Origin: an uncultured Clostridia bacterium
GTDB taxonomy: Bacteria; CAYTYR01; UBA6262
Direction of reading: 5' to 3'
Length of the DNA: 64,000 bases
Assembly: GCA_964441745.1 (NCBI GenBank)
Contig: CAYTYR010000002.1
Coordinates: 1-64,000 of the forward strand
Position numbers and translations under genes: made by a program. Of the stretch, positions 19,856 through 58,634 are shown in pieces. A model generated the notes under the pieces. The model saw nothing but the letters and a program-made list of their open reading frames with translations. It was not told where the DNA came from and did not search any database. Position 1 is the stretch's first letter. Each line of letters starts with the position of its first letter.

Positions 19856-19868
19856 CCCGCCGGGCAGG
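19856..19868 (-). mobile_element. Minimal CCTG-hairpin micro-element
   Basis: Minus strand CCTG-CCCG-G-CGGG, the same architecture as the longer copies. Confidence 0.35.
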
Positions 19869-19891
19869 TACTAATAAATGATAGGCAGGTC

Positions 19892-19924
19892 AGTCAGGGT
19901 GAGAATATTTTTCCCTGACTTTTT
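19892..19924 (+). terminator. Rho-independent terminator
   Basis: AGTCAGGG/CCCTGACT stem followed by a T run. Confidence 0.65.
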
Positions 19925-19947
19925 GTTTTAGTAGGGAAATTGAAGGT

Positions 19948-20040
19948 TATCAGGAAATCAGAATATCAGGTAGTACGTCCTGATACCCTGATAATCTGAT
20001 AATCTGATACTCTTCACCCTGATCTTCTGATGTCCTGATA
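19948..20040. repeat. ATCAG/CTGAT inverted short-period array (family A)
   Basis: About 8-bp ATCAG(G) units followed by CTGAT units; recurs at 27131 and 51251. Confidence 0.7.
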
Positions 20041-20082
20041 TTCGATTTAATATCTCACAACTCAAGGAGGCTTGACTGAACA

Positions 20083-21288
20083 ATGATCCCAGAAAATGTA
20101 ATGAAATCTCTGGCGGTGAAAACAAATTCCAAAATTGTGCTCTTGATCATGGATGGCGTAGGCGGGTTGCCTCTTAACGGTAAAACCGAATTAGAAACAG
20201 CGCGTAAACCAAATTTGGATAAATTAGCCCAGGATTCCATCGGGGGCTTGACTGATCCGATCAATCCAGGGATCACGCCGGGCAGCGGACCATCACATTT
20301 GGCGATCTTTGGTTATGATCCTTTAAAATTTGATATTGGCCGCGGCGTACTGGAAGCGGCCGGGATCGGTTTTGAGTTGACTGGCCGTGACCTGGCGGCG
20401 CGGGGTAATTTCGCGACGATGAATGATGACCAGGTGATCACTGACCGGAGAGCTGGCCGTATCCCCACCGCCAAAAACGAGCAGATCTGTGCTGAACTGC
20501 AGAGCAAGATCAAAAAAATTGATGGGGTGGAAGTCTTTATCCGGCCGGGCAAGGAACACCGTTTCGTGATTATTTTCCGTGGCGATGGATTACAGGGACC
20601 TTTGACTGATGCCGATCCCCAGAAAGAAGGTTTGAAAATCAAGTTTACGGAAGCGTCAACTCCGGAGAGCAAGAAAGCCAGTGATATTGTCAATAAGTTT
20701 ATCAAGGAAGCTAATATCATTCTCCAAAGCCATCATCCGGCCAATACTGTGCTCTTGCGCGGGATTGCCAAAGTACCGCACATCCCTTCGATGACCGAAC
20801 TATTCAAGCTCAACCCAGCCTGCATCGCCACCTATCCCATGTATAAAGGATTAGCCAGCCTGGTGGGCATGAAAATATTGCCGGTCGGAGATACGATCGC
20901 CTCTGAATTCCAAACACTCAAAGAACAATGGGATAATTACGATTTCTTCTATGTGCATATCAAGAAGACAGATTCTTACGGTGAAGACGGTAATTTCGAG
21001 AACAAAGTTCACATCATTGAAGAACTGGATGCCTGCCTGCCCCAATTGCTGGAATTAAAACCAGCGGTCATTGCTGTGACCGGTGATCATTCCACTCCGG
21101 CCGTCATGAAAGGGCATTCCTGGCATCCTAACCCTTTCATCCTGTACTCGGCCTATGAAAGAAAAGACCATTTGAAAGCTTTTACTGAAAACGAATGTGC
21201 CCACGGGATCATCGGCCGCTTCCCGGCCTGTGACGCGATGCAGCTGCTGCTGGCCAATGCCTTGAAACTCAATAAGTTCGGCGCTTAA
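20083..21288 (+). CDS. apgM: Cofactor-independent phosphoglycerate mutase (ApgM type)
   Basis: DGVGG, TPGSGPSHLAIFGYDP, GRG, ARGNF, TGDHSTP, HSWHP. Confidence 0.9.
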   Translation: MIPENVMKSLAVKTNSKIVLLIMDGVGGLPLNGKTELETARKPNLDKLAQDSIGGLTDPINPGITPGSGPSHLAIFGYDPLKFDIGRGVLEAAGIGFELTGRDLAARGNFATMNDDQVITDRRAGRIPTAKNEQICAELQSKIKKIDGVEVFIRPGKEHRFVIIFRGDGLQGPLTDADPQKEGLKIKFTEASTPESKKASDIVNKFIKEANIILQSHHPANTVLLRGIAKVPHIPSMTELFKLNPACIATYPMYKGLASLVGMKILPVGDTIASEFQTLKEQWDNYDFFYVHIKKTDSYGEDGNFENKVHIIEELDACLPQLLELKPAVIAVTGDHSTPAVMKGHSWHPNPFILYSAYERKDHLKAFTENECAHGIIGRFPACDAMQLLLANALKLNKFGA

Positions 21289-21289
21289 T

Positions 21290-21802
21290 ATGAAAAAAGT
21301 ATTAATGGTCATCGCTCATGAAATATTCCGCGATGAAGAGTACCTGCAACCTAAAAAAATATTGGAAACTGCCGGAATTAAAGTGATCACCGCGTCCAGC
21401 AGCCTGGAGCCCGCTACCGGTAAGCTTGGCACAATAGTCCATCCTGATGTCCTGGTGCAGGAAAGCCGGGCGGCAGAATATGACGCCATAGTTTTTATTG
21501 GCGGCAGCGGCTCCCGGAATTATTTCCATGATCCGGCGGCACATGCTTTAGCCAAAGAAGCGGTGGAGAGAGAAAAGTTACTGGCCGCTATTTGCAGCGC
21601 TGCTGGGATCTTAGCCCAGGCTGATGTGATCAAAGGGAAAGAAGTGACCAGTTATCCGGCTGAAGCAGAAATGATCGAACAGCATGGCGCTCATTATACC
21701 GGCAAAGATGTGGAAATTGACGGCCGCTTGATCACGGCCAATGGTCCGGCGGCGGCGGCAGATTTTGGCCGGGCGATCAGGAAGAAATTATTGAAAGAAT
21801 AG
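21290..21802 (+). CDS. DJ-1/PfpI family protein
   Basis: FRDEE, YDAIVFIGG, AAIC, ITANGP. Confidence 0.88.
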   Translation: MKKVLMVIAHEIFRDEEYLQPKKILETAGIKVITASSSLEPATGKLGTIVHPDVLVQESRAAEYDAIVFIGGSGSRNYFHDPAAHALAKEAVEREKLLAAICSAAGILAQADVIKGKEVTSYPAEAEMIEQHGAHYTGKDVEIDGRLITANGPAAAADFGRAIRKKLLKE

Positions 21803-21807
21803 AAATA

Positions 21808-24009
21808 ATGATCTGGAATCTTAATCTTTTTGCTGCTGGTTTTACCGCGCTTATTACCCAGACTCTCTTAGTCCGGGAGATGGTTAATGTATTCAGCGGC
21901 AATGTTTTTTCCCTGGGCCTCATTTTCGCGGGATGGCTTTTATGGGTGGCCGGCGGCAGTTATCTCTCCGGAAAATTTTCCCGCCGTCTTGAACAAAATC
22001 CAAACATGTATATTATTGGCCAGGGTTTAGCGCTTTTAATCCTGCCGCTGGAAATAATCCTGATCCGGGCCTTGCGTTTACTGCTCCAGATCCCGCCAGG
22101 TCAGCTCATTGGTTTTTCACCCTTGCTCTTGAGCGCGTTGCTGGCCACGGCCCCGCTCGCTTTTCTGGTGGGCTGGCAGTTTTCCCTGGCTTGCCGTCTC
22201 CTGCCGTCTGTCTCCCTGGTGTATCGCCTTGATGTGCTCGGCAGTCTGGTTGGCGGGCTTATCCTGAGTTTGTGGCTGACCCGATCCCAGAGTCCTTTTT
22301 TTATTATTTTTACGGTTATTTGTCTTAATTTGGTAATGCTTTTTTTATTATGGCAAATTACCGGGGAGAAAAAGCGCCCCTGGCTTTTTACGGCGCTCAT
22401 CATCAGCTTGATCCTGGCTCTAGGCCTGGTTTTCAGCGGCCAGTTGCCCCTGCTGGAACAATGCACTCAGCGTTTAAACTGGCCTAAAACAATTGTGCGT
22501 GATTCTGCCGTCTCACGCTATGCCCACTATGCGGTCACCGGAGAAGGGGACCTGCGTAATTTTTATGTTAATGGTTTATTAAGTTATTCCAATCCTGATC
22601 TTACCGGCAGTCAGATGCTGGCTCACCTGGCCATGCTGGAAACCCCTCAACCCAAGCGAATTCTGGTTATCGGCGGGGGCTTTAATGGTCTGCTCAAGGA
22701 AATCCTTAAATACCCTGTCTCTGAAGTTTATTATAGCGAATTAGATCAGATCCTGGTCCAGCTGGCCCAGGACCATATTATTACTGAAGATCGCCAGGCT
22801 TTATATGATTTCCGGGTCATACTGCTCAATACTGACGGCCGCTTGTTCCTGCGGGAAAGCGCTGCCGGTAAATTTGATGCTATTATCGTGAATGCCGGGA
22901 ATCCACTGACTGCCGAGGTAAACCGTTTTTATACCACTGAATTCTTTCTGGCTGCCCGGAAGAAACTGACCCGGGCCGGGGTAGTGATCCTGGGCGTTGA
23001 TTCCAATGAAAATTACCTGAGTCCTGAATTGCGTAATTATAATGGCTGTCTTTACTGGACCTTAAAAAGTGTTTTTACTAAAGTGATAGCCGTACCCGGT
23101 GAAACAATGTATCTCGCCGCTTCTTCCAGTGATTCTTATCTCAGCGATAATGCGCAGGTATTGACTGAACGGTTACAGGAACGTGCTGTAACCGCCCAGT
23201 ATTTTGCCGCGACCATTCCTTATCTGCTGACGGCGGAAAAAATTGGGTTTACCCTGACGGCGCTGGAAGATTATCCGGCCCAAAAATTGAACCATGATTT
23301 TGCGCCGATCAGTTATTACCATAATATTATCCTGTGGGGTAAACAGTTCCAATCTGCCTGGCCCGGAATATTGTGGTCGGCCATGCAATGGAAATGGTGG
23401 CGCTGGTTATTAATCTTTGGCCTGCTGGTTTTGTCCGGCTGGCTGATTATCCGGAAAAATTCATTTGTTCTCTTGCCGACCCAGGTTTTTATCGCCGGCC
23501 TCGCCGGTATGGCGGTGGAAATGGTCCTGATCTTGTCCTGTCAGATCATGGTTGGCTATGTCTATCATCTTTTGGGGATCGTCCTGGCCTGTTTTATGTT
23601 AGGACTGGCTTTAGGATCCAGGATCAGTAATCGCTTCAATTCATCACCTGATCAGTGGTTTCCGGTCTTGTTAAAGGTGATGGCCTTGTTTGGCTTATTC
23701 ATTATGGCGTTACCGGTAATATTGACACTGCTCTCTACGATAGCCTGGACTCCCGCGCTCGTTATCTCTATTTTAATGCTCACGATCATGGATGGCTTGT
23801 GGGTCGGGATGGTTTTCCCGTTAAGTTGTTTGATTAAACCCCGGCCCGGCTTGTTTTACGCCATGGACCTGTTAGGCGCTGGCGTGGGTACGATTGTGGT
23901 TAACCTGATGCTTATTCCCTTATTAGGAGTGTTTGGCGCCTGTTATAGCTTAGGCGCTTTGGTTTTGTCTGCCGCGGTCATTGGTTTTTGTTACTTTAAG
24001 GTTGCCTAA
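21808..24009 (+). CDS. Membrane-bound spermidine synthase-like protein (fused MFS/SpeE)
   Basis: TM blocks at both ends; ILVIGGG, ELD, DGRLFL, FDAIIVN, NRFYTTEFF. Confidence 0.8.
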   Translation: MIWNLNLFAAGFTALITQTLLVREMVNVFSGNVFSLGLIFAGWLLWVAGGSYLSGKFSRRLEQNPNMYIIGQGLALLILPLEIILIRALRLLLQIPPGQLIGFSPLLLSALLATAPLAFLVGWQFSLACRLLPSVSLVYRLDVLGSLVGGLILSLWLTRSQSPFFIIFTVICLNLVMLFLLWQITGEKKRPWLFTALIISLILALGLVFSGQLPLLEQCTQRLNWPKTIVRDSAVSRYAHYAVTGEGDLRNFYVNGLLSYSNPDLTGSQMLAHLAMLETPQPKRILVIGGGFNGLLKEILKYPVSEVYYSELDQILVQLAQDHIITEDRQALYDFRVILLNTDGRLFLRESAAGKFDAIIVNAGNPLTAEVNRFYTTEFFLAARKKLTRAGVVILGVDSNENYLSPELRNYNGCLYWTLKSVFTKVIAVPGETMYLAASSSDSYLSDNAQVLTERLQERAVTAQYFAATIPYLLTAEKIGFTLTALEDYPAQKLNHDFAPISYYHNIILWGKQFQSAWPGILWSAMQWKWWRWLLIFGLLVLSGWLIIRKNSFVLLPTQVFIAGLAGMAVEMVLILSCQIMVGYVYHLLGIVLACFMLGLALGSRISNRFNSSPDQWFPVLLKVMALFGLFIMALPVILTLLSTIAWTPALVISILMLTIMDGLWVGMVFPLSCLIKPRPGLFYAMDLLGAGVGTIVVNLMLIPLLGVFGACYSLGALVLSAAVIGFCYFKVA

Positions 24010-24064
24010 TAGACGCTAGATGTGATATATTATAAAATATTAGCAGCTCAAACAGGGAGGCGTT

Positions 24065-24280
24065 ATGTCCTCGAAAAAAGGATGTTTTGTTATCCGCAAG
24101 GGGAAGTTTTTCTGGGTGCAGTTAGTGATGAGCCATTCGGATATGGGTGGTAAAGAGTATTACATAGCTTACGGACAGTACATTAATGAAAAAGAAGCCC
24201 GTAAAATCTGCCAGAAACAGAATCGTTTTGCTCTCTGCATTGATTGCCAGTGGAAGAAAAAAGCTCTCTGCCAGATTTAG
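24065..24280 (+). CDS. Small hypothetical protein
   Basis: GGGAGG RBS and a TAGACG-N17-TAAAAT promoter (24010-24038). Confidence 0.55.
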   Translation: MSSKKGCFVIRKGKFFWVQLVMSHSDMGGKEYYIAYGQYINEKEARKICQKQNRFALCIDCQWKKKALCQI

Positions 24281-24318
24281 CCTCGGTGCGGGGAAGGATA
24301 GTAGGAGGATATAACTTC

Positions 24319-25242
24319 GTGCAAATTAAAGATTTGATCTCAATTTTAGATTTATCAGTAGCGGAAATTGAAGAAGTCTTCGCCACCGCTGCGATGTTGA
24401 AGGAAAAGCAGAAAAAGGGAGAGGAATATGCTCCTTTAAAAGGCAAAAGCCTGGCCATGATCTTTGCCAAGTCTTCTACCCGGACCCGGGTATCTTTTGA
24501 GGTAGGGATGCTGCAATTGGGCGGCCATGCGCTTTTTATGAGTACCCAGGATATGCAGTTAAAACGGGGAGAATCGATCCATGATACGGCGAAAACACTT
24601 TCTCGTTATGTCGATGGCATAATGATGCGCACTTATAGTCATAAGGATGTCCTGGAGATGGCTGAACATGCCACTATCCCGGTCATTAATGGTTTAACTG
24701 ACCTGTCTCATCCTTGCCAGGCGCTAACTGATATTTTCACTATTATTGAAAAAAAGGGGAAGGCCACTGGCTTAAAGATCGTTTATCTTGGCGATGGCGA
24801 TAATGTAGCTCATTCACTGGCCATTATCGCGGGTAAGCTGGGACTGCACATGGTCTTATGTGTCCCGCCGGGATATGAACCGGATAAAGGGATTATCAAG
24901 GAAGCGCAAGGATTAGCTGCCAGTTCCGGAGCCAAGCTCGAATTAAACAATGATCCGCAATCTGCCGCTGCCGACGCCGATATACTGTATACTGATGTCT
25001 GGACCAGCATGGGCAAGGAACAGGAACGGGAAGAGCGGCTAAGAATATTTAAACCCTACCAGTTAAATAACCGGCTCTTAGCCAAAGCCAAACCAGATTG
25101 CATGGTTATGCACTGCCTGCCAGCGCACCGGGGCGAAGAGATCACTGATGAAGTGATGGCCAGCCAGCAGAATATTTCTTTTGACCAGGCTGAAAACCGG
25201 TTGCATGTGCAAAAAGCCATACTCGCCTTATTATTAAAATAA
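24319..25242 (+). CDS. argF: Ornithine carbamoyltransferase
   Basis: SSTRTR, HPCQ, GDGDN, TDVWTSMG, HCLP; GTG start after AGGAGG. Confidence 0.95.
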   Translation: MQIKDLISILDLSVAEIEEVFATAAMLKEKQKKGEEYAPLKGKSLAMIFAKSSTRTRVSFEVGMLQLGGHALFMSTQDMQLKRGESIHDTAKTLSRYVDGIMMRTYSHKDVLEMAEHATIPVINGLTDLSHPCQALTDIFTIIEKKGKATGLKIVYLGDGDNVAHSLAIIAGKLGLHMVLCVPPGYEPDKGIIKEAQGLAASSGAKLELNNDPQSAAADADILYTDVWTSMGKEQEREERLRIFKPYQLNNRLLAKAKPDCMVMHCLPAHRGEEITDEVMASQQNISFDQAENRLHVQKAILALLLK

Positions 25243-25272
25243 TTTTTATTACACTTAAATACGGGAGGAATT

Positions 25273-25866
25273 ATGAAGAAAGTATTGATCGTCTTAGCCA
25301 TAATTATAGGTCTATTAGTTCTGTTGGGCTTGGCCATAGCCGGCAAATATAACAGCCTGGTCAAGCAAGAAGAAGCGGTTAAGACTGCCTGGGCCCAGGT
25401 AGAAAATGTCTATCAGCGCAGGCTTGACTTGATCCCTAACCTGGTGGAAACAGTTAAAGGATATGCCAAGCATGAAAAAGACGTATTTATTGAAGTTACT
25501 GCGGCCAGGGCCGGGGTCGGACAAGTGAAAGTTGATGCCGGACTGTTCAATGACCCGGCAGCAATGCAATCTTTTCAAAAAGCCCAGGCCAGTCTGAGCG
25601 GCGCTTTAAGCCGGTTACTGGCTGTGGCTGAAAATTACCCGACTTTAAAAGCCAATGAAAATTTCCTGGCTTTACAAAGCCAGTTAGAAGGGACCGAGAA
25701 CCGGATTGCGGTTGAGCGCAAACGGTTTAATGATATGGCCCAAGCCTTCAATACCAGCATCAGGCAATTCCCGACCAATTTTATTGCCGGGATGTTTGGC
25801 TTTAAGAACAAAGCTTATTTTGAAAGCGAACCGGCAGCAGCCAAAGCGCCAGCAGTGAAGTTCTAA
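25273..25866 (+). CDS. lemA: LemA family protein
   Basis: YQRRLDLIPNLV, ENYPTLKANENF, LEGTENRI. Confidence 0.95.
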   Translation: MKKVLIVLAIIIGLLVLLGLAIAGKYNSLVKQEEAVKTAWAQVENVYQRRLDLIPNLVETVKGYAKHEKDVFIEVTAARAGVGQVKVDAGLFNDPAAMQSFQKAQASLSGALSRLLAVAENYPTLKANENFLALQSQLEGTENRIAVERKRFNDMAQAFNTSIRQFPTNFIAGMFGFKNKAYFESEPAAAKAPAVKF

Positions 25867-25867
25867 A

Positions 25868-25944
25868 CAGTGATAGAGAGTGGTAGAGTGGTAGAGTGGT
25901 AAGTGGTAAGTGGTAAGTGGTAAAGTGATAGAGTGATAGAGTGA
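25868..25944 (+). repeat. AGTGRTA(G) 7-8 bp tandem array (family D)
   Basis: About 10 units of AGTGGTA/AGTGATAG; a shorter array lies at 44578-44613. Confidence 0.7.
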
Positions 25945-25958
25945 CTTAGGAGAAATGC

Positions 25959-26672
25959 TTGTTTAAAAAATTAGCTTTAATTTTAATTAGTATATTTTGC
26001 CTATCTGTTTCTATCGTCTGGGCGTTGGAAGTGCCGGCAAAACCGGTCAGCCGGGTGAATGACAATGCCGGTATGTTTTCTAGCCAGGCAGTCTTGGAAA
26101 TGTCGGAAACACTGGGTAATTTTGAAGCTCAAAAAGGCATCCAGATAGTTGTAGCTACTTTCCCTTCTCTGGAAGGGGACAGCCTGGAAGATTTTTCCAT
26201 CCGGTTGGCTGAAAAATGGAAGATCGGGCAAAAGGGCCAGGATAACGGCCTGATCATTGTTATTTTCAAAAATGACCGTAAGGTCAGGATGGAAGTAGGC
26301 TACGGCCTGGAAGCAGTCCTGACCGATGCTTTGTGTTCACAAATTATAACCCAAAACATAGTTCCTCATTTTAAGCAGGAAAATTATGATGCCGGTATAA
26401 AATCAGCAGTGACTGCTATCCTCGGTATTCTCAGTGAGGAAAGAAGCGGCCGGGTGGCGCAGTCACAACCGGTAAAAAGTATTACTTTAATTATTATCTT
26501 GATCATTGTTTTTATCGTTATTATAGTTATCAATCTAGGTGGCGGCTCCTGGTTCTCCTTAGGCGGTAACGGTTATGGTGGCGGGGGTTTCAGCGGGGGG
26601 TTTGGCGGGGGCGGCGGCTTTAGCGGTGGCGGCGGGAGTTTTGGCGGAGGAGGATCCAGCGGCGGCTGGTAA
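25959..26672 (+). CDS. TPM domain protein (YgcG-like)
   Basis: Signal peptide, VNDNAG, KWKIGQKGQDNG, EVGYGLE, Gly-rich tail. Confidence 0.9.
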   Translation: MFKKLALILISIFCLSVSIVWALEVPAKPVSRVNDNAGMFSSQAVLEMSETLGNFEAQKGIQIVVATFPSLEGDSLEDFSIRLAEKWKIGQKGQDNGLIIVIFKNDRKVRMEVGYGLEAVLTDALCSQIITQNIVPHFKQENYDAGIKSAVTAILGILSEERSGRVAQSQPVKSITLIIILIIVFIVIIVINLGGGSWFSLGGNGYGGGGFSGGFGGGGGFSGGGGSFGGGGSSGGW

Positions 26673-26680
26673 TTTAATCT

Positions 26681-27127: not shown

Positions 27128-27130
27128 AGG

Positions 27131-27258
27131 GTATCAGGATATCCGGAGAACAGGAGATGGGGATCAGATTATCAGGAAGTTAAAGTATTAAGCATTTCCT
27201 GATGTCCTGATTTTCTGATATCCTGTTAACCTGAGCTTTATTAACCTGATACTCTGAT
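27131..27258. repeat. ATCAG/CTGAT inverted array (family A)
   Basis: ATCAGG-like units followed by CCTGAT-like units. Confidence 0.7.
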
Positions 27259-27295
27259 GGCCGTAATTAAAAAAAGGAAAGGGAATTTACCATTT

Positions 27296-28087: not shown

Positions 28088-28155
28088 ACCCCGCTCTTCC
28101 TATATAATTAAGCCAAATATCAGCCAGATAATTTTTTTAAAAGAAGGAAGTAACT

Positions 28156-30211: not shown

Positions 30212-30234
30212 AGTTTTTACCGAGGAAGGGCTGG

Positions 30235-36493: not shown

Positions 36494-36519
36494 CCTAGTT
36501 TCTAACGAAACTGGGCAGG
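36494..36519 (-). mobile_element. CCTG-hairpin micro-element
   Basis: Minus strand CCTG-CCCAGTTTC-GTTA-GAAACTAGG. Confidence 0.45.
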
Positions 36520-47027: not shown

Positions 47028-48069
47028 TAACTCAAAACTCACCTGTCCCCGCTTCTTTGATTTGTTCCGTAGGACAAATCAGCAGGGGAAAACTCAAAAC
47101 TCAACATTGCTTTTCATAGTACTAATAATATCTCTGTTCGGATGTAAGCCCAAGGAACAAGAGGTCTATGATGCCAGGGTGATGCTGGGAACAGTGATCG
47201 AGATCAAGATAGTCGATGCTGATACCCAAAAAGCAAACCAAGCGCTCACTGCGGCTTTCGCTGAGATCAGCCGTATCGAAAAATTAATGTCCCATTTTGA
47301 TCCGGACAGCATCCTTTCGCGGTTGAATAGGCAGGGTTTTTCCGAGGACCGGGAACTTAACGATCTTATCTTGCAAGCCCTGGAACTAAGTAGAATTACC
47401 GCCGGCGGTTTTGACATTACGGTAGGGCCATTGATGAATTTATGGGATTTCAAAGCCACGATCCCGCGGGTACCGGCAACGCGACAGATCAGCCAAGCGC
47501 TGATAAATATTAGTTATAAAAAAATAAATTTTGATTCCAATAAAAATAGAATTATGATAAAAAAGGGCATTGACATTGATCTGGGTGGAATTGCCAAAGG
47601 GTATGCTACGGACCAGGCCATAGCTGTATTGCAAAAAGAGGGCATCCATACCGCGTTAGTCAACTCTGGCGGAGATATCCGAGCGATCGGTAATAAGGAA
47701 TGGAACATTGGCTTGAAAGATCCGCGTAGTAATAATATCTTGGCGGCCATTAGAGTTAAGGACAAGGCTGTAGTCACCAGCGGGGATTATGAGCGGTATT
47801 TCATCAAAGACGGGAAACGATATCACCATATTCTGGATCCACGTACCGGTTATCCGGCTGGCCTGTGCCAAAGCGTGACCGTTATTGCTCCGACCGCTAC
47901 GGCGGCAGTGGCCTTAGCTAAAGGAATTTTTGTGGCTGGGCCGGTGATAGGACTGGAAATTGCGGCTTCACAACCGGAGACAGAGACTATTATTATCGAT
48001 AACCAGGGCCGGGTACATGTATCCGCCGGCTTGGTTAAAAAAGAAAATACGTATCATCTAAAGCCCTAG
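47014..48069 (+). CDS. apbE: FAD:protein FMN transferase (lipoprotein)
   Basis: LFGC lipobox, MLGT, FDITVGPL, DLGGIAKG, TSGDYERY, YHHILDPRTGYP. Confidence 0.92.
   Translation: MSYNNNSKLTCPRFFDLFRRTNQQGKTQNSTLLFIVLIISLFGCKPKEQEVYDARVMLGTVIEIKIVDADTQKANQALTAAFAEISRIEKLMSHFDPDSILSRLNRQGFSEDRELNDLILQALELSRITAGGFDITVGPLMNLWDFKATIPRVPATRQISQALINISYKKINFDSNKNRIMIKKGIDIDLGGIAKGYATDQAIAVLQKEGIHTALVNSGGDIRAIGNKEWNIGLKDPRSNNILAAIRVKDKAVVTSGDYERYFIKDGKRYHHILDPRTGYPAGLCQSVTVIAPTATAAVALAKGIFVAGPVIGLEIAASQPETETIIIDNQGRVHVSAGLVKKENTYHLKP
47041..47088 (+). mobile_element. 48-bp CCTG-hairpin micro-element inserted in frame in the apbE signal region
   Basis: Removing it restores a perfect AAAACTC tandem array; its arms match the reverse complement of 56080-56125. 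Confidence 0.75.
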
Positions 48070-48077
48070 TTCTAATC

Positions 48078-48097
48078 CCTGCCGGCCGGCCGGCAGG
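48078..48097. mobile_element. 20-bp perfect palindrome CCTGCCGGCCGGCCGGCAGG
   Basis: CCTG at both 5' ends; intergenic. Confidence 0.5.
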
Positions 48098-48124
48098 TGG
48101 GCAATCATCTTCATGGAGTGAAAA

Positions 48125-48460: not shown

Positions 48461-48477
48461 AATTAGTAAGAACTGAA

Positions 48478-48592: not shown

Positions 48593-48656
48593 TTTCGAAT
48601 TGACTGGTAACTGCCTTTCGCACTTACTGGCAACTATTTTAGAAAAGGATGTGACC

Positions 48657-50051: not shown

Positions 50052-50053
50052 AA

Positions 50054-50671: not shown

Positions 50672-51261
50672 AAAACAATCGCCCGTATCAGTATATTTTG
50701 GCCAGCGCCTCCCCCCGCCGCCGTCAATTACTCCAGGAAATGGGACTCCAATTTAAAATAATCCCCAGCTCGATTACAGAAAAGGTTGATCCTGTTCTTT
50801 GTCCGTCTCAGCTGGTCAAGGAGCTGGCTTGGCAAAAAGCGGCTGATGTCGCCCGGAAATTCCCAGGGAAAAAATATCTAGTTATCGGGGCAGATACTAT
50901 TGTGGTCCGGAGAGGGGAGATCCTGGGGAAGCCGCGGGATGCCTCGCATGCCCGGCAGATCTTAAATAAGTTAAGCGGCAGCATTCACTTTGTCTATACC
51001 GGAGTAGCAGTGATCGATACCTCTACCGGCAAAAAGATTGTGTCTTACGAAAAAACCAGGGTTAAAATGAAAAAGTTAAGTCCGGAAGAAATAATATATC
51101 ATTCCGGGCGGCATTTAGATAAAGCCGGCGCTTATGCCGTGCAGGAAGAAAAAGATGCTTTTATCGAAAAAATAGATGGCTGTTATTATAATGTGGTTGG
51201 CTTGCCTCTTAATCTTCTTAAGCGGATGCTTAAGCAGTTGGCAGCAAAGGGAATCAGGTAA
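50668..51261 (+). CDS. maf: Maf family nucleoside triphosphate pyrophosphatase
   Basis: LASASPRR, GADTIV, LGKP, DKAGAY, NVVGLP. Confidence 0.93.
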   Translation: MKNNRPYQYILASASPRRRQLLQEMGLQFKIIPSSITEKVDPVLCPSQLVKELAWQKAADVARKFPGKKYLVIGADTIVVRRGEILGKPRDASHARQILNKLSGSIHFVYTGVAVIDTSTGKKIVSYEKTRVKMKKLSPEEIIYHSGRHLDKAGAYAVQEEKDAFIEKIDGCYYNVVGLPLNLLKRMLKQLAAKGIR

Positions 51262-51401
51262 TCAGGAGACCAGGAGGAAGAATATCAGGACATCAGGATA
51301 GCAGGAAGTTCCTGATTTCCTGGTAACCTGATAACCACCACCTGATACTCTGATATTCTGATAGACTATACTTACTTCCAAACCCTACACCTAATAACTG
51401 T
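51251..51401. repeat. Family A array (51251-51362) fused to a half copy of family B (51363-51401)
   Basis: ATCAGG/CCTGAT units followed by ACTTACTTCCAAACCCTACACCTAATAACTG; lies between convergent genes. Confidence 0.65.
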
Positions 51402-51403
51402 CT

Positions 51404-52135
51404 TTACTCTGCTTGACCAGTCATCTGTTTCTCTATTTTCTCTAAATTGTCCTCGATCTTAGCCCCAGCTTGCAGTTTTTTATACCATTCTTCAAAAGTT
51501 TGTGACTTCTTCTGCTGTAACAGGCTCTGCCTTATCGTTTCCTTTTCCTTTAACAGGTCTTCCGGTTTTGGGGCTGTTTTCTTATCTTTTAGCCGTTTAG
51601 TGGCTTCATCTGCCACTTCCTGATCAGTGACTATTATTGTTGCTGTTATTTTTTCCTGTAATTGCTGAATGATCAGGCTTTCCCTGACCTCTCTCTCAAA
51701 TACGGCCGGGGTAGTGCGTATTTGCATTTTCAGGATATTTAAATATTGCTGCTTATCAAAGCGGCCATCTTTTTGGAAATAAGGCAGTTTTTGGATATAA
51801 TCGCTTAACTCTTTATTAGAGACTTTGATCTTCATTTTATTAGCTTCTTGCAGCAGCAAGACCTTGCTGATCATTTCATTGAGTACCATTTTTTTCAGGT
51901 TATTGGCCATTTCTTCATTAATTTCAATGTTATACATATTGCGGTAATTATTCATCCTTTGCCCAAAAGTAGCATTGAATGCTTCATACCTGATTTTTTT
52001 CCCGTTGACCTTGGCCACCACATCAGCCGTATTGGTAAAGAAATAGCTCCCTAACCCTACGAACGTAGCCATAATAAAAATACTGACCGCGAACCATAGG
52101 AATATTTTGGTATTTTTGCGTATTGCTTTAAGCAT
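51404..52135 (-). CDS. SurA N-terminal domain/PpiD-like periplasmic chaperone
   Basis: MLKAIRK..TM helix, VAKVNG..I, FQKDGRFD..Y; AGGGAGG RBS on the minus strand. Confidence 0.82.
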   Translation of the reverse strand: MLKAIRKNTKIFLWFAVSIFIMATFVGLGSYFFTNTADVVAKVNGKKIRYEAFNATFGQRMNNYRNMYNIEINEEMANNLKKMVLNEMISKVLLLQEANKMKIKVSNKELSDYIQKLPYFQKDGRFDKQQYLNILKMQIRTTPAVFEREVRESLIIQQLQEKITATIIVTDQEVADEATKRLKDKKTAPKPEDLLKEKETIRQSLLQQKKSQTFEEWYKKLQAGAKIEDNLEKIEKQMTGQAE

Positions 52136-52262
52136 ATTCTAATTCCTCCCTTTAAAAACAATTCTTATATATACCCTAAACAGCAAAATAAAGCAAGTTT
52201 TTTTATAGTCCTGCCAAAATCTAATGCAAAGATCAGGTTAATATGATATAATTTCACATCCT

Positions 52263-53147
52263 ATGAATACCTTAACCATCCTTTTTTACCGCGTCTTTAT
52301 TTTCATCCTGCTGGGCTATCTCCTGGGCCGCAATCAGCGGTTGAACATCCAGCGGCAGTCGCAGGGAATGATTAATATTGCGATGTACGTCCTGTTCCCG
52401 GTTTTTGTGCTGGTGACCATGTGGTCAGAGCCTCTGCCCACTGCTTGTCTCTCTCAGATCTGGTTACTGGCTCTTGGAGTGATTATTGGCGGCGCGGCCT
52501 TGGCCTGGTTCTTTAGCCGGCTTTATACTGTATCCTATCGTGATTGCAGTTTACCCATCATCTTTATTAATTCAGCGTATCTCGGGATCCCGGTTAATAC
52601 CTATATCCTGGGTCCGGCCGCTACCAAATATGCCATTATTTTTGATCTTGTCCCTACCATAGTCATGTTCACTTTGGGCGTGGCTCTGGTCTCCAGGGGG
52701 AATAAACTGAAAGAAATGCTGAAAATGCCCTTGGTCTATGCCGCCCTGCTTGGTATGTTGTTAAATGCGCAGGGAGTACCAGTTCCCTGGTTGGCGCTAA
52801 AAATAACCAGCCTGATTAAAGCGGTTACTATGCCTTTAATCCTGATTATTGTTGGCTATGAGCTTAAACCTTTTAAATCCTCCTTATTAAGCCAGGTATT
52901 AGTGGCATCGCTATTGCGTATGGCTGGCGGCGCTCTGCTGGCTTTTGTCCTGATGTCTTGGCTGCGGCTGGAAGGAATCCCGGCTTTGGTCTGCTTGATC
53001 AGCGCCAGTATGCCCAGCGCGGTTAATAGTTATGTCCTGGCTAAAAAGTACCAGGCCAATGCCGAATTTGCCTCAGCCGTGGTCGCTATGAGCACCCTGA
53101 TCAGCGTTCCCTTAATTATATTAGGGACTTTACTTATCCAGCAATAA
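52263..53147 (+). CDS. AEC family transporter
   Basis: NSAYLGIP, MPSAVNSY, about 10 TM helices. Confidence 0.85.
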   Translation: MNTLTILFYRVFIFILLGYLLGRNQRLNIQRQSQGMINIAMYVLFPVFVLVTMWSEPLPTACLSQIWLLALGVIIGGAALAWFFSRLYTVSYRDCSLPIIFINSAYLGIPVNTYILGPAATKYAIIFDLVPTIVMFTLGVALVSRGNKLKEMLKMPLVYAALLGMLLNAQGVPVPWLALKITSLIKAVTMPLILIIVGYELKPFKSSLLSQVLVASLLRMAGGALLAFVLMSWLRLEGIPALVCLISASMPSAVNSYVLAKKYQANAEFASAVVAMSTLISVPLIILGTLLIQQ

Positions 53148-53210
53148 ATGCTATAATAAAATTTCGTTATTAGTATCTATTCATTCGCGTAATTCGCTGG
53201 AGTATTTTAA

Positions 53211-56048
53211 ATGGAAATCCCGTCTAAGTATGACTCTAAAGAGACTGATAGTAAATGGTATGATTTGCAGAGCAAGTATTTTCATGCCCAGCCTGACCCG
53301 GCTAAGAAGCCGTTTACCATAGTTATACCTCCGCCTAATGTCACCGGTTCACTGCATATGGGCCATGCCTTGAATAACACCCTGCAGGATATTCTGATCC
53401 GTTGGCGGCGCATGGAAGGATACAACGCCTGCTGGATACCAGGGACTGATCACGGGGGCATTGCTACCCAGAATGTAGTGGAAAAACTGCTCAAGCAGGA
53501 AGGAAAGACCCGTTTTGACCTGGGCCGGGAGAAGTTTTTAGAAAGAATGTGGAAGTGGCGCCAGGAAACCGGGGATACTATCTTAAAACAACTGCGAGTC
53601 CTCGGCTGTTCTCTGGATTGGGAGCGGACCCGTTTTACTATGGATGAGCAGTGTTCACTGGCAGTTAAGACGGCTTTCAGCCAGCTTTTTGCCAAAGGCT
53701 GGATCTATCGCGGTGAGCATATTGTGGACTGGTGCCCGCGGTGCGGCACGGCGCTCAATGAAAGCGAAGTGGAGCATGAACAGGAAAAAGGCCACCTCTG
53801 GTACATCAGATATCCTGTAAAAGAAAGTCAGCGGTCCCGCCACCAGAGCACCGGCGGGCAGGCAGCGGTCAGCGGTCAGCAGTTCATTGTTGTTGCTACT
53901 ACCAGGCCTGAAACGATGCTGGGCGATACAGCGGTAGCGGTTAATCCCAAAGATGAAAGATATAAAAATTTTATCGGCAAAGTACTGGTTTTGCCCTTAG
54001 TGAACAGGGAAATACCAGTGGTTGCTGATGAGGTGGTAGAAATGAGTTTTGGTACTGGGGCCGTAAAAGTGACTCCAGCTCATGATCCTAATGACTGGGA
54101 GATTTCCAAGCGGCACAACCTGGCTTCGATCCAGGTGATTGATAAAGAGGGCAAGATTACGCCACAAGCAGAAGTAGATACCAGCGGACGAGTTATCCCG
54201 CAGGCTGAGGTTAAAGGATATATTGGCCAGGACCGGTATAAGGCCCGGGAAAAAGTTGTTGCCGATCTCAAGGAAAAAGGGTTTCTGGAGAAGGAAGAAG
54301 ATTATACATTACCCATTACCAGGTGTTACCGTTGTAACAATGCTACCGAACCACTGGTTAGCGAGCAATGGTATTTAAAAACCAGGGAAATGGCTGATGC
54401 CGGCATGAAGGTGGTAGAAGAGGGCCAGACCAAATTTGTCCCGGATAATTGGGCAAAACCATATTTACTCTGGATGAAAAACCTGCATGACTGGTGTCTT
54501 TCCCGGCAGATCTGGTGGGGGCATCGTATCCCAGCCTGGTATTGCCTGAAATGCAACAAAGACAAGATTATTTTTAAGGATGATAGTAAGGAAAACTATA
54601 TATTGCGGTCTGGCATAAAACCAGATTATGTTGGAGTTAATGCTCCGGAAAAATGCCCTCAGTGTGGTGGCACGGAATTGGTCCAGGATCCTGATGTTCT
54701 GGATACCTGGTTTTCCAGCGCTCTCTGGCCATTTTCTACTTTAGGCTGGCCGGAGAAAAATCCAGATCTGGATCATTTTTACCCTACTGCTGTACTGGTA
54801 ACTGGTCATGAGATCATCTATCTTTGGGTAGCGCGCATGATCATGATGGGATTGACCCTGATGGGTCAGACTCCTTTCAGCGATATCTTTATCCATGGTA
54901 TAGTCCGAGACAGCCATGGCAAGAAAATGAGCAAATCGCTGGGTAATGTCATCGATCCGTTGGACGTGAGCGCGCAATTTGGCGTAGATGCTGTGCGGTT
55001 TACCTTGGCCTATAACGGCATCCGGGGTCGGGATCTACAGCTCGGCAATGAATCTTTCCAGGCCGCGCGGTATTTTTGCAATAAGCTCTGGAATGCCTCC
55101 CGTTTAGTGCTCATGAACCTGAAAGAAGGGGCGTTTGTCAGCCTGGAGAAGATTCCCCCGGCGCATTTGGAGTTAGCGGATAAATGGATCCTGAGTGAAT
55201 TCCAGAAACTGATTGGTTCAGTCAATGCGGCTCTGGAGAGTTATGATATCAGTCAGGCTTCGCGTCTGTTATATGAATTTACCTGGAGTAAATATTGCGA
55301 CTGGTACCTGGAATTGGTTAAATCCAGGCTCTATATTATCGAAGAACAGGAAACGAAACAGATCGCCCAGGCAGTATTGATCTATGTGCTGGACGGTATC
55401 TTGAAACTATTACACCCGATCATGCCTTTTATTACTGAAGAAATATGGCAGAATATGTCAGCGGTCCCGCCACTAGAGCACCGGCGGGCAGGCAGCGGTC
55501 AGCGGTCAGCGGACACAGAGACCAGTCTTGCCGTGCAGGAATGGCCGAAAGCTGACCAACTCTTAATCGATGAAAAAGCTGTTGCTAAAATGAACCTGGT
55601 GATGGACACCGTATCAGCGATCCGCAATATCCGCGGTGAAATGAGGGTCAATCCTGCCCAGAAGATCAAGGCTTTGATTAAAGTTGCCGGTGAACAAAAA
55701 GAAATACTGGCAGACAATATACAATACCTTTCTACCCTGGCGCGGCTGGAGGCCTTGAACTTAGGAGAAGATATCGCTAAACCGTCAGGCGCAGCTGCCG
55801 CTGTCGTGGCTGGTATAGAAATATATATCCCGCTCGCCGGTATTATTGATATCAACAAAGAACGGCAGCGTTTGGAAAAAGAAATAGCCAAGCTGGGAGA
55901 AGAGCTGAAAAAAGTTGAAGTGAAACTTAACAATAAGGAATTCATGCACAAAGCGCCGATAGTGGAAATAGACCGGGTTAAAGGCAAGGCCGTGGAAATG
56001 AAAGAGAATAAGCAGAAACTGGAAGATAATTTACAGTCACTAAGTTGA
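53211..56048 (+). CDS. valS: Valine--tRNA ligase carrying two repeat-derived inserts
   Basis: PPPNVTGSLHMGH, ATTRPET, SRQIWWGH, KMSKS, C-terminal coiled coil. Confidence 0.97.
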   Translation: MEIPSKYDSKETDSKWYDLQSKYFHAQPDPAKKPFTIVIPPPNVTGSLHMGHALNNTLQDILIRWRRMEGYNACWIPGTDHGGIATQNVVEKLLKQEGKTRFDLGREKFLERMWKWRQETGDTILKQLRVLGCSLDWERTRFTMDEQCSLAVKTAFSQLFAKGWIYRGEHIVDWCPRCGTALNESEVEHEQEKGHLWYIRYPVKESQRSRHQSTGGQAAVSGQQFIVVATTRPETMLGDTAVAVNPKDERYKNFIGKVLVLPLVNREIPVVADEVVEMSFGTGAVKVTPAHDPNDWEISKRHNLASIQVIDKEGKITPQAEVDTSGRVIPQAEVKGYIGQDRYKAREKVVADLKEKGFLEKEEDYTLPITRCYRCNNATEPLVSEQWYLKTREMADAGMKVVEEGQTKFVPDNWAKPYLLWMKNLHDWCLSRQIWWGHRIPAWYCLKCNKDKIIFKDDSKENYILRSGIKPDYVGVNAPEKCPQCGGTELVQDPDVLDTWFSSALWPFSTLGWPEKNPDLDHFYPTAVLVTGHEIIYLWVARMIMMGLTLMGQTPFSDIFIHGIVRDSHGKKMSKSLGNVIDPLDVSAQFGVDAVRFTLAYNGIRGRDLQLGNESFQAARYFCNKLWNASRLVLMNLKEGAFVSLEKIPPAHLELADKWILSEFQKLIGSVNAALESYDISQASRLLYEFTWSKYCDWYLELVKSRLYIIEEQETKQIAQAVLIYVLDGILKLLHPIMPFITEEIWQNMSAVPPLEHRRAGSGQRSADTETSLAVQEWPKADQLLIDEKAVAKMNLVMDTVSAIRNIRGEMRVNPAQKIKALIKVAGEQKEILADNIQYLSTLARLEALNLGEDIAKPSGAAAAVVAGIEIYIPLAGIIDINKERQRLEKEIAKLGEELKKVEVKLNNKEFMHKAPIVEIDRVKGKAVEMKENKQKLEDNLQSLS
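53827..53880 (-). mobile_element. 54-bp composite insert: GTCAGCG heptamers plus a 27-bp CCTG-hairpin element (53836-53862)
   Basis: 53/54 identical to 55457-55510. Confidence 0.8.
55457..55510 (-). mobile_element. Second copy of the 54-bp composite insert in valS (hairpin at 55466-55492)
   Basis: 53/54 identical to 53827-53880 and read in a different frame. Confidence 0.8.
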
Positions 56049-56050
56049 AG

Positions 56051-56244
56051 AAAATCCTAATATCGAATATCGAAATTCTCCCCTGCTGATCCCGATAAAT
56101 CGGGATCAAAGACGCGGGGACAGGTAAACAATATTAAATGGCCAAAACTATAATGTTGAAATGTTTAAGAATTTGGATTTAGGGTTTAGAAATTGTTTAG
56201 GGTTTAGAAATTGTTTAGGGTTTAGAAATTAGATATTAGAATTT
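56051..56244. repeat. Inverted short-period array (family E) with three tandem 18-bp units
   Basis: AAATCCTAATATCGAA...TTAGATATTAGAATTT arms; about three copies of TTTAGGGTTTAGAAATTG at 56178-56230. Confidence 0.7.
56080..56125 (-). mobile_element. 46-bp CCTG-hairpin micro-element nested in the family E array
   Basis: Same arms as the 47041 element with a different inner hairpin; removal restores GAAATTCTAAACAAT. Confidence 0.75.
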
Positions 56245-56263
56245 GTATTCTAAGGGGTTAATA

Positions 56264-56974
56264 ATGGTTCGCAGTGACGGCAGAAGTAATGAACAGATAC
56301 GGCCGGTGAAGATCACGGTTGATTATATCAAGCAGGCGGAAGGATCCTGTTTGATTGAACTGGGACAGACCAAAGTGATTTGTACTGCCAGCGTAGACAA
56401 CAAAGTTCCGCCGCACCTGAAAGATACCCGTACCGGCTGGGTCACGGCTGAGTATTCCATGCTCCCCAGGGCTACCAACACTCGTAACCAGCGTGAACGG
56501 ACCAAACTCTCTGGCCGGACCTTTGAAATACAGCGTTTGATCGGCCGGGCTATGCGGGCCTGTGTGGAATTAAAACAATTAGGCGAAAGGACCATTATCC
56601 TTGATTGCGATGTGATCCAGGCTGATGGCGGGACCAGGGTAGCTTCAATTACCGGAGCTTACGTCGCTTTGGTCAAGGCTTTGCGCACCATGAAAGACAA
56701 AGGACTGATCAATACTCTGCCCCTAAAAAACCAGGTGGCGGCTGTGAGCGTAGGCCTGATCAACGGGGAAATATTGGTAGATCTTTGCTACGAAGAGGAT
56801 TCCAAAGCTGATGTGGATATGAATGTGGTAATGACCGGTGATGGAGGATTCATAGAGGTGCAAGGGACCGGGGAAAATAGCACCTTTTCCAAGGAAGAGC
56901 TGGATCAGCTGCTGCAGTCAGCCCAAAAAGGCATTACCGAGCTGCTAAAACTGCAGAAAGAAGCCCTAAAATAA
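56264..56974 (+). CDS. rph: Ribonuclease PH
   Basis: [40 protein letters not shown]. Confidence 0.96.
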
Positions 56975-57030
56975 AAAAGCAGTTTTGAATTTTGAGTTCA
57001 ACTCGCAACTCGCAACCCGAAACTGTTTTT
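56975..57030. terminator. Bidirectional terminator-like hairpin containing heptamer repeats
   Basis: AAAAAGCAGTTT...AAACTGTTTTT with internal AACTCGC repeats. Confidence 0.55.
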
Positions 57031-57032
57031 AA

Positions 57033-57218
57033 GTAGGGAAGTGCAAGGGATTTTAATCCTTGCTATTTAGTTTTGGTTCTTTTTTTTCTGGTAAATTGCG
57101 ATCCCAAGAGTTTTTGGCTGCCAGTGAGCCTGTATTTAGGCATCTACTGCGCCTGATTCTGGGGTCGAGACTTACAGAACTCGATTAGAGCTCTTTCATC
57201 TCTTGCAACTTCCCCTAC
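57033..57218 (-). ncRNA. ssrS: 6S RNA-like rod-shaped RNA
   Basis: 186 nt with a closing stem GTAGGGGAAGTTGCAAG/CTTGCACTTCCCTAC, a central bubble and an apical stem. A minus-strand promoter TTGCAG-N17-TATATT lies at 57251-57223, but G-U pairs do not clearly favour that strand. Confidence 0.6.
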
Positions 57219-57284
57219 GATGAATATAGCGCAATTTATTGTTCCCTGCAAGCGATATTTAAGTAAAAAAACATCGGAGTTTTA

Positions 57285-57842
57285 ATGGGAAATCTGAAAG
57301 GACAGATGGTTATCTCCACCATCAAATATCTCAAAACTGTTTTTGGTGATGAAAACTATTCAGCAGTCTTGAGTAAAATGAGCGCGGTTTCCAGGAACGT
57401 CATTGCTGGCAATATTATGTATGGCCAAATGGTTCCCATGAAGCCATATATTGATCTTATTCGGACGGCTGACGAGTGCCTGGGTAAAGGAAATTACCTG
57501 TTATGCCGCAAAATAGGGCAGTTTGTGGCAGAAGAAGGCATTCCCAAATTATACCGTGTTTTTGTTACTACTGCTGACCCGCTGTTTGCGATCAACCGTT
57601 TACCGAATTTCTGGACTCACATGTATGATTCAGGGATTTTGACCATCCAGCACGAGACTAAAAACATTGTGACTGTAAATATCATCGATTTTGCCGATAT
57701 GCATAAGGCCTACTGCTGGCAGTTGCTGGGGTATTTTGAAAAAATGCTGAAACTGGCTGGCGGTAATAACGTGAAAATAATTGAAACTGCCTGCCGGGCC
57801 AATGGCGGGGCCCAATGTACCTATTCCATTGCCTGGGAATAG
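57285..57842 (+). CDS. V4R/H-NOX-like (DUF2378-like) small-ligand-binding protein
   Basis: KG.., FG, C-terminal ETACRANGGAQCTYSIAW V4R-type motif. Confidence 0.65.
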   Translation: MGNLKGQMVISTIKYLKTVFGDENYSAVLSKMSAVSRNVIAGNIMYGQMVPMKPYIDLIRTADECLGKGNYLLCRKIGQFVAEEGIPKLYRVFVTTADPLFAINRLPNFWTHMYDSGILTIQHETKNIVTVNIIDFADMHKAYCWQLLGYFEKMLKLAGGNNVKIIETACRANGGAQCTYSIAWE

Positions 57843-57850
57843 ATTATTTA

Positions 57851-57892
57851 AGTAATCTGTGTAATCTTCTTTTTGAATCGGTGTAATCAGTT
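57851..57892 (+). repeat. AATCTGTGTAATC repeat (family C)
   Basis: TAATCTGTGTAATC..AATCGGTGTAATC. Confidence 0.6.
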
Positions 57893-57918
57893 AGCGGAAC
57901 AGAGTGGAGCTTAACTTA

Positions 57919-58545
57919 ATGGATCTGGTGTTGGCGACCAAGAACAGGGATAAGATTAGAGAGATCAAGCACTTGTTGCGTGGTCTGAAAACGAAAGTAT
58001 TAAGTATTGAAGATTATCCTGATTTGCCGGAAGTGCACGAAGACGGCGAAACATTACGGGATAATGCTATTAAGAAAGCTGTGACCATAGCTGCTTATAC
58101 CGGAAAATGGGCTCTCGCTGATGATACGGGATTGGAAGTAAAGGTTCTGAATGGGGCGCCAGGAGTGTATTCGGCGCGTTTTGCCGGTCCCGGCTGTAAA
58201 TATATTGATAATAATAAAAAACTGCTGAAACTGTTAGGGGACTTACCAATAAATAAGCGCAAAGCGCAATTTAAATGCGTTATGGCTCTGGCTGATCCCC
58301 AAGGAAAAGTGCATACTGTGTCTGGCGTGATCAATGGCTATATTGGTACTAGGATGCAAGGGACGCAGGGATTTGGTTATGACCCGGTTTTTGTCGTGCC
58401 AGAATATGGCAAGACCTTTGCCCAACTGGGGCTGAAAACCAAGAACCAGATCAGCCACCGCGGTAAAGCATTGGAAAAGATCAAGAAAGTTATTCAGCGT
58501 ACACTGGACAGCGTACAGCGTACAGGAAACCGGCATAAAGCGTGA
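57919..58545 (+). CDS. rdgB: XTP/dITP diphosphatase
   Basis: ATKN..K..E, ADDTGL, APGVYSAR, GFGYDP, ISHR. Confidence 0.95.
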   Translation: MDLVLATKNRDKIREIKHLLRGLKTKVLSIEDYPDLPEVHEDGETLRDNAIKKAVTIAAYTGKWALADDTGLEVKVLNGAPGVYSARFAGPGCKYIDNNKKLLKLLGDLPINKRKAQFKCVMALADPQGKVHTVSGVINGYIGTRMQGTQGFGYDPVFVVPEYGKTFAQLGLKTKNQISHRGKALEKIKKVIQRTLDSVQRTGNRHKA

Positions 58546-58609
58546 GGAGCTTGTATATATCCTTATTTGCTTGTGAAAAGGTTACTGAGGTAGTTGCCCA
58601 AAGGGGTGA

Positions 58610-58634
58610 CCCGCCAAAAAGATCGGCGGGCAGG
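58610..58634 (-). mobile_element. 25-bp CCTG-hairpin micro-element
   Basis: CCCGCC-N9-GGCGGG-CAGG; same stem and foot as the valS copies. Confidence 0.7.

Follow-up and report, generated by a model that had tools for sequence, protein, structure and literature searches.

The nearest precedents for the hairpin repeats analysed here, which lie in a 64-kb window (positions 1 to 64,000 of contig CAYTYR010000002.1) from the genome of an uncultured Clostridia bacterium, are the small dispersed repeats (SDRs) of Nostoc and the repetitive extragenic palindromic sequences (REPs) tagged with GTAG or CGTC. SDR1-8 of Nostoc punctiforme and its relatives, reportedly described by Elhai et al. (2008, Genome Res 18:1484), are dispersed repeats of 21-27 nt; they are said to fold into hairpins maintained by compensatory change, to insert in tandem heptamer tracts, to nest in one another and to be non-coding, their mobiliser being unknown. 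REP families are known as lineage-specific, and the IS200/IS605 insertion sequences are transposed as single strands by the Y1 enzyme TnpA; they depend on hairpins, leave no target duplication and are cleaved at a 3′ end that bears a short conserved word. Ever since the first accounts of the Nostoc SDRs and of the REPs, it has been asked how repeats of only 20-30 nt or so copy themselves.

In the passages of PMC3733652 and PMC3116915 available to us, REPs bear a terminal tetranucleotide tag, either GTAG or CGTC, and are associated with RAYT transposases. The same passages of PMC3733652 place REPs inside small palindromes and in frame in open reading frames (ORFs), including tRNA synthetase genes, and describe the Rickettsia palindromic elements (RPEs) as CGTC-tagged. 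The Nostoc SDRs are also treated in sections of PMC4390886 and PMC3116915, and the consulted part of PMC5861425 reports no SDR-like repeat outside Nostocaceae among the HIP1-rich cyanobacteria examined.

For the window, a first-pass annotation had listed eight sites in which CCTG directly precedes a GC-rich stem-loop, and had read them as one family of REP-like insertions with a freely varying stem. We followed these sites in the whole genome that contains the window (the own genome: 2.07 Mb, 39 contigs, 44.6% G+C, rated 98% complete), in five congeneric genomes (G001-G005, with a DNA identity of about 75-89%) and in more distant genomes. The repeats are probably very small, non-coding and non-autonomous mobile elements of the SDR or REP kind, moved in trans.

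Hairpin families ending in CAGG

The copies were extracted by considering every occurrence of the conserved 3′ words in the whole own genome, and as controls for the family patterns we used the same patterns read backwards. Instead of a single family, there are at least four sequence families (A-D), each represented by a GC-rich stem-loop followed by CAGG (hence CCTG followed by a hairpin on the other strand). The CAGG foot comes directly after the stem or one base later in all four, so the REP-like architecture proposed by the first-pass annotation, a tetranucleotide abutting a GC-rich hairpin, was found in each of them.

Family A consists of CCCGCC, a loop of 9-13 nt, GGCGGG and CAGG, for a total of 25-29 nt (mode 27), and family B of CCCCTGCTGAT, a variable inner hairpin, ATCAAAGAC and GCGGGGACAGG, for a total of 45-48 nt. 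Family C is the palindrome CCTGCCTGCCGGCAGGCAGG of 19-20 nt, and family D, of which 17 copies lie outside the window, is TCCGCC-WGA-GGCGGA-CAGG (19 nt). In family B the T before CCCC pairs with the A before CAGG, therefore the unit is a closed hairpin plus its CAGG foot. Its inner hairpin varies and yet stays paired, with 12 distinct inner sequences in 21 copies: the stem is of the type CCCGAT/ATCGGG or TTGTCC/GGACAA in 17 of the 21 copies, and TCAC/GTGA in one. In the consensus that family A shows elsewhere the loop begins with TGCC, so that CCTGCC (element positions 5-10) could pair with GGCAGG (22-27) instead of forming the main stem.

Pattern matches in the own genome were 13 for family A, 18 for B and 17 for D, and none for each of the reversed patterns. 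Moreover, when all 256 four-mers were ranked by over-representation immediately 3′ of 11,040 maximal GC-rich stems, CAGG came first, with 137 occurrences against 68.8 expected. A looser scan, in which CAGG after any stem of at least 6 bp was counted, gave no enrichment (9.3 against a median of 8.5 per 1000). Thus, the excess over controls that the first-pass annotation expected of any hairpin beside CCTG holds for specific families only, to which the CAGG signal belongs.

As in REPs, the tetranucleotide abuts a short GC-rich stem-loop, and there are many dispersed copies and several families per genome; unlike in REPs, the tag is CCTG/CAGG and not GTAG or CGTC, and neither CCTG nor CAGG occurs as a word in the passages of PMC3733652 available to us, in agreement with the earlier remark that the foot is unusual. 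The lengths of families A, C and D, the hairpin fold and its preservation by compensatory change are shared with the SDRs, whereas family B exceeds their 21-27-nt range. In a full-text search of one literature library with 12-13-nt pieces of the family A consensus, the papers listed among the matches were unrelated uses and no description of the repeat was found, and an Rfam scan of the window returned two tRNAs and nothing else.

Filled and empty sites and the choice of targets

Individual loci have gained copies whose borders are exact and whose target duplication is at most 1 nt, and the occupied sites differ between species of the genus. Two of these copies belong to family A and lie in frame in valS, the gene for valine-tRNA ligase (53211-56048, + strand; NF004349, 1163.5 bits against a cut-off of 704). 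The first (53836-53862, + strand, 27 nt) is made of CCCGCC, an 11-nt loop, GGCGGG and CAGG, and is followed by the translated CAGCGGT heptamer tract that hosts it (53863-53880, + strand, 2.6 copies); the valS ORF remains open across the insert, and the element is absent at the same valS site in all five congeners. The second (55466-55492, + strand, 27 nt) differs from the first by 1 nt and has heptamer flanks like those of the first, but is translated in a different frame, its translated CAGCGGT tract being at 55493-55512 (+ strand, 2.9 copies); it is absent in the three congeners that could be aligned there.

The family B element downstream of valS (56080-56125, + strand, 45 nt plus one ambiguous T) is present in G002 and missing in G003 and G004, which leaves a clean 46-nt gap with a single T assignable to either side. 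In the reverse case, a family B copy is present in G003 and the same flank motif is empty on own contig C31, again with a clean 46-nt gap. At 47041-47088 (− strand) another family B element, of 47 nt plus one ambiguous base, lies directly after a stop codon; its removal restores an AAAACTC heptamer tract, as the first-pass annotation had noted for deletions of this kind. This site is filled in G004, and different repeats occupy it in G001, G002, G003 and G005. When seven family B loci of the relatives were compared with the own genome, one was a clean empty site, four were larger replacements and two had no two-sided orthologue. At 48078-48097 there is a perfect 20-nt palindrome, CCTGCCGGCCGGCCGGCAGG, to which no strand can be given and which the whole-genome copy comparison identified as a variant of family C. 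Among the relatives, G002 and G004 have an empty site here, G001 has a canonical family C copy, and G003 has a family C copy with a further insert nested at its centre.

Precise insertion with no multi-base target duplication, one of the claims of the first-pass annotation, is therefore borne out by filled and empty sites at 53836, 55466, 56080 and on C31, and the empty orthologous alleles that it predicted in close genomes do exist. Since no target duplication beyond one ambiguous base was found at these pairs, the target-site duplication that, with terminal inverted repeats, characterises miniature inverted-repeat transposable elements is absent. The gene-less derivatives of IS200/IS605 elements likewise combine a lack of target duplication, a hairpin and a short conserved 3′ word.

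Six of the eight sites originally listed are members of the dispersed families, the sixth being a 25-nt family A element in an intergenic region (58610-58634, + strand), with a tRNA gene 118 nt downstream; its flank context also occurs at three other copies of the own genome, and no alignable orthologous site was found in the congeners. The other two sites were not confirmed as members. The hairpin at 36494-36519 (+ strand), followed by CAGG and with a 9-bp stem that includes one G-T pair, is a single copy and at most a possible member; its 3′ half was found once in the own genome, and the relatives either lack or replace an entire stretch of about 70 nt. At 19856-19868 an insertion was rejected, since G001, G002 and G003 have diverged sequence of the same length there.

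No polymorphism between filled and empty states was seen in the pre-assembled contigs of four public DNA runs, contigs that break at repeats. One public-run contig of a relative covers 53169-54496, with 27 gap letters.

Five 27-nt family A copies of the own genome are in frame in genes, precisely two in valS (in different frames) and one each in tsaD, purL and a phosphohexomutase gene, and the copies of 25, 26 or 29 nt were found only outside real genes. The valS gene is single-copy: no second valS was found, and the other matches were paralogues with 25-28% identity. In the encoded protein the two inserts fall at about residues 205-226 and 750-772. In all six genomes of the genus translated heptamer tracts occupy the same two places of valS (53827-53880 and 55457-55512 of the window; loci L089-L095), and the 27-nt element is present at them in the own genome only. 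Because the tract units differ across the genus (GACCAAC, GACCAGC, GACCGGC, GGTCGCT and CAGCGGT), the tracts are rapidly replaced or homogenised within an essential gene. That essential genes such as valS, tsaD and purL tolerate these inserts matters for gene calling and for protein alignments, and also for assembly, because the contigs of relatives and of public runs break at the repeats. The RPEs, too, are palindromic repeats found in frame in genes that stay functional, but they are longer, confined to Rickettsia and not tied to heptamer tracts.

Heptamer tracts host the inserts in valS, tsaD, purL and at the 47041 site. Elements also lie within dispersed repeats of other kinds, at hairpin tips (in other phyla) and in housekeeping genes, at spots that are probably tolerant because they are at the protein surface (27-nt copies only). 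Precise insertion in heptamer tracts and in other repeats is a trait shared with the SDRs. Removal of the element restores a 7-9-nt period in 7 of 21 family B copies, against 9% with permuted flanks, and in 3 of 13 family A copies, which is not distinguishable from the control value of 15.5%. For families C and D a period was never restored, and the copies are placed at the edge or at the centre of GATTACAC-type repeats. In the intergenic gaps of the window there are also tracts with an 8-nt unit (CCTGATAA and its relatives), at 19948-20040, 27194-27234 and 51248-51363, beside 7-nt tracts.

Family A across phyla and on viral DNA

Family B was found in this genus only: it was present in all five congeners, in none of the 35 further genomes of the relatives set and, among species-representative genomes, in only five public records of metagenome-assembled genomes (MAGs). 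Family A was also present in the five congeners, and it occurred once in one other genome of the family and once in one genome of the class; one genome from outside the class had five copies.

Family A crosses phylum boundaries and rides on viral DNA. Its strict 27-nt pattern matched at least 119 stretches in species-representative genomes, and most of the matches listed share a consensus near CCCGCCTGCCAAGCCTTGGCGGGCAGG. The labels among these matches include Saprospiraceae, Lewinellaceae, Chitinophagales and Bacteroidales, Dehalococcoidia and other Chloroflexota, Omnitrophota, KSB1, Ignavibacteriota, Cloacimonadota and others. Lone matches in GC-rich genomes look like chance. In 26 whole genomes, some of which may overlap with those of the relatives set, the counts ranged from 1 to 46 (46, 31, 19, 18, 16 and downward), against 0-1 for the reversed controls. 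In one Bacteroidota family a single genome of the 121 sampled had the element, and this patchiness argues for horizontal spread. In viral contigs we found eight canonical matches, distributed over 7 of 9 loci and in some cases within apparent genes.

This distribution separates the repeats from both precedents. The presence of family A in Bacteroidota, Chloroflexota, Omnitrophota and others differs from the confinement of the SDRs to a subgroup of heterocystous cyanobacteria, and a single 27-mer common to many phyla is not known for REPs. Furthermore, the host does not belong to the cyanobacteria: its 2.07 Mb contain only 30 HIP1 sites, and the best relatives of its valyl-tRNA synthetase are about 50% identical and belong to other phyla. 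No A-D motif was found in the first 50 kb of the N. punctiforme plasmid pNPUN01, and the likeness to the SDRs considered here is that of their described traits. One Nostocaceae genome gave a single match, with an unlike loop, and in 400 kb of one Nostocaceae genome only one of 134 short period-7 tracts was interrupted, a result uninformative for the SDRs.

Like the SDRs, family A nests in its own copies in another phylum, where one copy lies inside a reversed copy, itself inside another hairpin within a heptamer tract. One copy, in another genome, occupies the loop of a REP-like hairpin that adjoins a RAYT-like gene. On a Bacteroidota contig, a gene between two direct family A copies was considered as a possible transposase and rejected, since it is dnaA.

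Other hairpins were observed as hosts of family A. In a Saprospiraceae-labelled MAG (L179, L197, L345) a second hairpin repeat, ACCCTCCTTCGCY-AAGGCTTCGGCGGG-TAAA, about 31 nt long, is built like family A but has a TAAA foot; it is the commonest family A host in that MAG, and the composite of host and insert is tandemly duplicated. At six loci of Dehalococcoidia-labelled MAGs and of one viral contig (L184, L204, L207, L215, L242, L309), a repeated GATTGCCACGCT|TCGCTCGCAATGAC hairpin carries family A at the centre of its loop, each time at the same position.

Possible routes of movement

If the elements are mobile in the SDR or REP manner, the unit would move as a folded single strand, recognised by its shape or stem and by the CAGG foot. 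A nuclease or transposase acting in trans, with its gene elsewhere, would copy or paste it; perhaps not all hosts encode this enzyme, and phages may carry it. The tag-plus-hairpin design would make a RAYT-type Y1 (HUH) enzyme the best single candidate. Once in a repeat tract, a copy would probably also spread to similar tracts by gene conversion, because the two valS copies share their flanks. The REP-like reading of the first-pass annotation is right in architecture and unproven in mechanism.

As that annotation had stated, no candidate mobiliser lies in the 64-kb window. The own genome has eight Y1_Tnp matches, some of them probably of the RAYT class: one protein scores 87.8 bits with NCBI's curated RAYT model NF047646, above the cut-off of 80, and carries a weak DnaA_C-like tail, and two others tested reach 57-67 bits. 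A RAYT-like protein of 315 aa is encoded on contig C8.

A number of observations weigh against movement by such an enzyme. The distances between Y1 genes and elements were judged by eye from coordinates, both in the own genome and in the 26 others. No A-D element lies within 300 nt of a Y1 gene at the eight loci of the own genome, where the first-pass annotation had proposed looking for Y1 or RAYT genes flanked by these hairpins, and the one near-copy, 329 nt from a Y1 gene, may be a chance match. The Y1 genes of the own genome are instead bracketed by a terminal repeat of their own, GGGGTCAGGCACTGAA..., whose 9-mer occurs 38 times in the genome. In the 26 other genomes no family A copy was seen within 1 kb of a listed Y1 match, save for a copy that interrupts a different REP. 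A Y1 gene is present in 22 of these 26 carriers and unmatched in four, three of which have 5-8 family A copies (the completeness of these genomes is not stated). Every one of the six genomes of the genus has Y1 genes, yet so do 28 of the 41 genomes of the relatives set, and their background frequency is thus high. In both respects, the absence of a RAYT gene flanked by elements and the family A carriers with no Y1 match, the repeats differ from REP/RAYT systems (REPtrons).

The target sites weigh in the same direction. No conserved target word was found beside the inserts, the left flanks being GGT, TGA, GTT, AAT, TAC and others. In the own genome the flanks never pair across the junction (0 of 13 copies for A, 0 of 21 for B, 0 of 17 for D), although in other phyla, in favour of the mobile-element reading, they do so in 13 of 55 family A copies, against 10.6% with permuted flanks. 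Orientation relative to the sign of the local GC skew was 18:9 for A (with a loose pattern that includes chance matches), 14:7 for B and 8:9 for D, on contigs that are unordered; any orientation bias of the three families would be at most weak, far from the strong bias described for IS200/IS605. From the latter the repeats differ in having one hairpin in place of distinct left and right ends and in having no fixed 5′ target word. Finally, the loop subtypes of family A track particular flank contexts and 7 of the 21 family B copies lie in one flank context, which fits copying by recombination as well.

A bolder version of the mobile-element reading, which we consider possible but doubtful, is that of a structure-defined mobile DNA, carried by phages across phyla, which at no more than 27 nt would rank with the smallest known. 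It would be inserted into single-stranded loops and slipped repeat tracts by an enzyme other than a resident RAYT, either an unrecognised phage-delivered nuclease or integrase, or a hijacked universal replication or repair activity, with CAGG as the joining site. If this were true, such elements would, together with the heptamer tracts, be a general and overlooked cause of in-frame differences in the length of essential proteins among uncultivated bacteria. The case offers families that have the end word CAGG in common, filled and empty sites with clean borders in six congeneric genomes, and a 27-mer shared across phyla and viral contigs; therefore a mobiliser could be searched for by phylogenetic profiling and tested with short oligonucleotides.

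It is unlikely that the repeats spread mainly by homologous recombination, gene conversion or replication template switching between similar tracts, with the hairpin riding along with its flanks, although several of the data given above are of the kind that such a route would leave. In fact, the two valS copies, which differ by 1 nt in sequence, agree over 9 nt on their left side and over 20 nt on their right, and the loop subtypes of family A correlate with CAGCGGT tracts, with GTTGATA tracts and with a GGGGTGA...GTTGCC context. The flank context common to seven family B copies also exists empty, the restoration of a period by 7 of 21 family B copies exceeds that of permuted flanks, and composite units are tandemly duplicated in another phylum. 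However, the same 27-mer occurs across phyla with no flanks in common (in different heptamers, in REP loops, in the coding sequence of phage genes and in its own copies), a first arrival in a new context cannot rely on homology, and 6 of the 10 tracts with perfect CAGCGGT or CAGCGGA units are free of elements.

Movement through an RNA copy, reverse-transcribed or otherwise written back into DNA, is a route reportedly suggested for the Nostoc SDRs, and for the present families it is improbable. Many copies lie directly after stop codons, and intergenic copies are more often co-oriented with the neighbouring genes than not (10 against 3 for A and 13 against 5 for B, with crude gene calls); but in the own genome the effect of gene direction cannot be separated from that of replication direction, family D has no such bias (7 against 8), and no RVT_1 match, hence no reverse transcriptase, was found in the own genome at its 98% completeness.

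Quite improbable is also a homing-like insertion driven by small free-standing GIY-YIG nucleases that cut the targets. In the own genome, two of the three small GIY-YIG genes lie no more than about 400 nt from an A- or C-type element, which is weak evidence because these genes adjoin tRNA genes in repeat-rich spacers, and in four other genomes (with 5-46 family A copies) only 1 of 16 GIY-YIG matches was within 500 nt of a copy, all the others being on different contigs or 3.6 kb or more from a copy.

That the hairpins are selected signals (stabilisers of mRNA 3′ ends, terminators or protein-binding sites) and not selfish DNA would suit the positions right after stop codons and the structure conserved by compensatory change, but it is very improbable, given copies within coding sequence and in two reading frames of one gene, presence or absence at the same site varying among close species, copies nested in one another and the lack of a T-run after the hairpins; a function may have been gained after insertion.

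Around the Y1 genes of the own genome other repeats were observed. RAYT-like Y1 genes with a DnaA_C-like tail (C8:5333-6394, C22:25750-26828, C1:954-3544) are bracketed by inverted GGGGTCAGG(C/G)..., a motif that was considered as a possible end of the elements and rejected, since it is the terminal repeat of the Y1 units themselves. About 12 solo copies of GGGGTCAGGCACTGAA(A/T)CGTGAAAG, several of them near contig ends, look like a separate terminal-repeat family. A hairpin, TTTCCACC-TACGC-GGTGGAAA, lies beside two Y1 genes (C8:48198-48851, C8:6343-6500) and may be a conventional REP of the shorter (217-241 aa) Y1 proteins.

On own contig C5:35540-36120 (L347, 541-1121) an intact tRNA-Cys gene adjoins a small GIY-YIG gene, and the pair is flanked by two tRNA-Cys-like fragments whose bodies are interrupted by A-type and C-type hairpins. 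In this region both ARAGORN and Rfam call the intact tRNA-Cys copy only.

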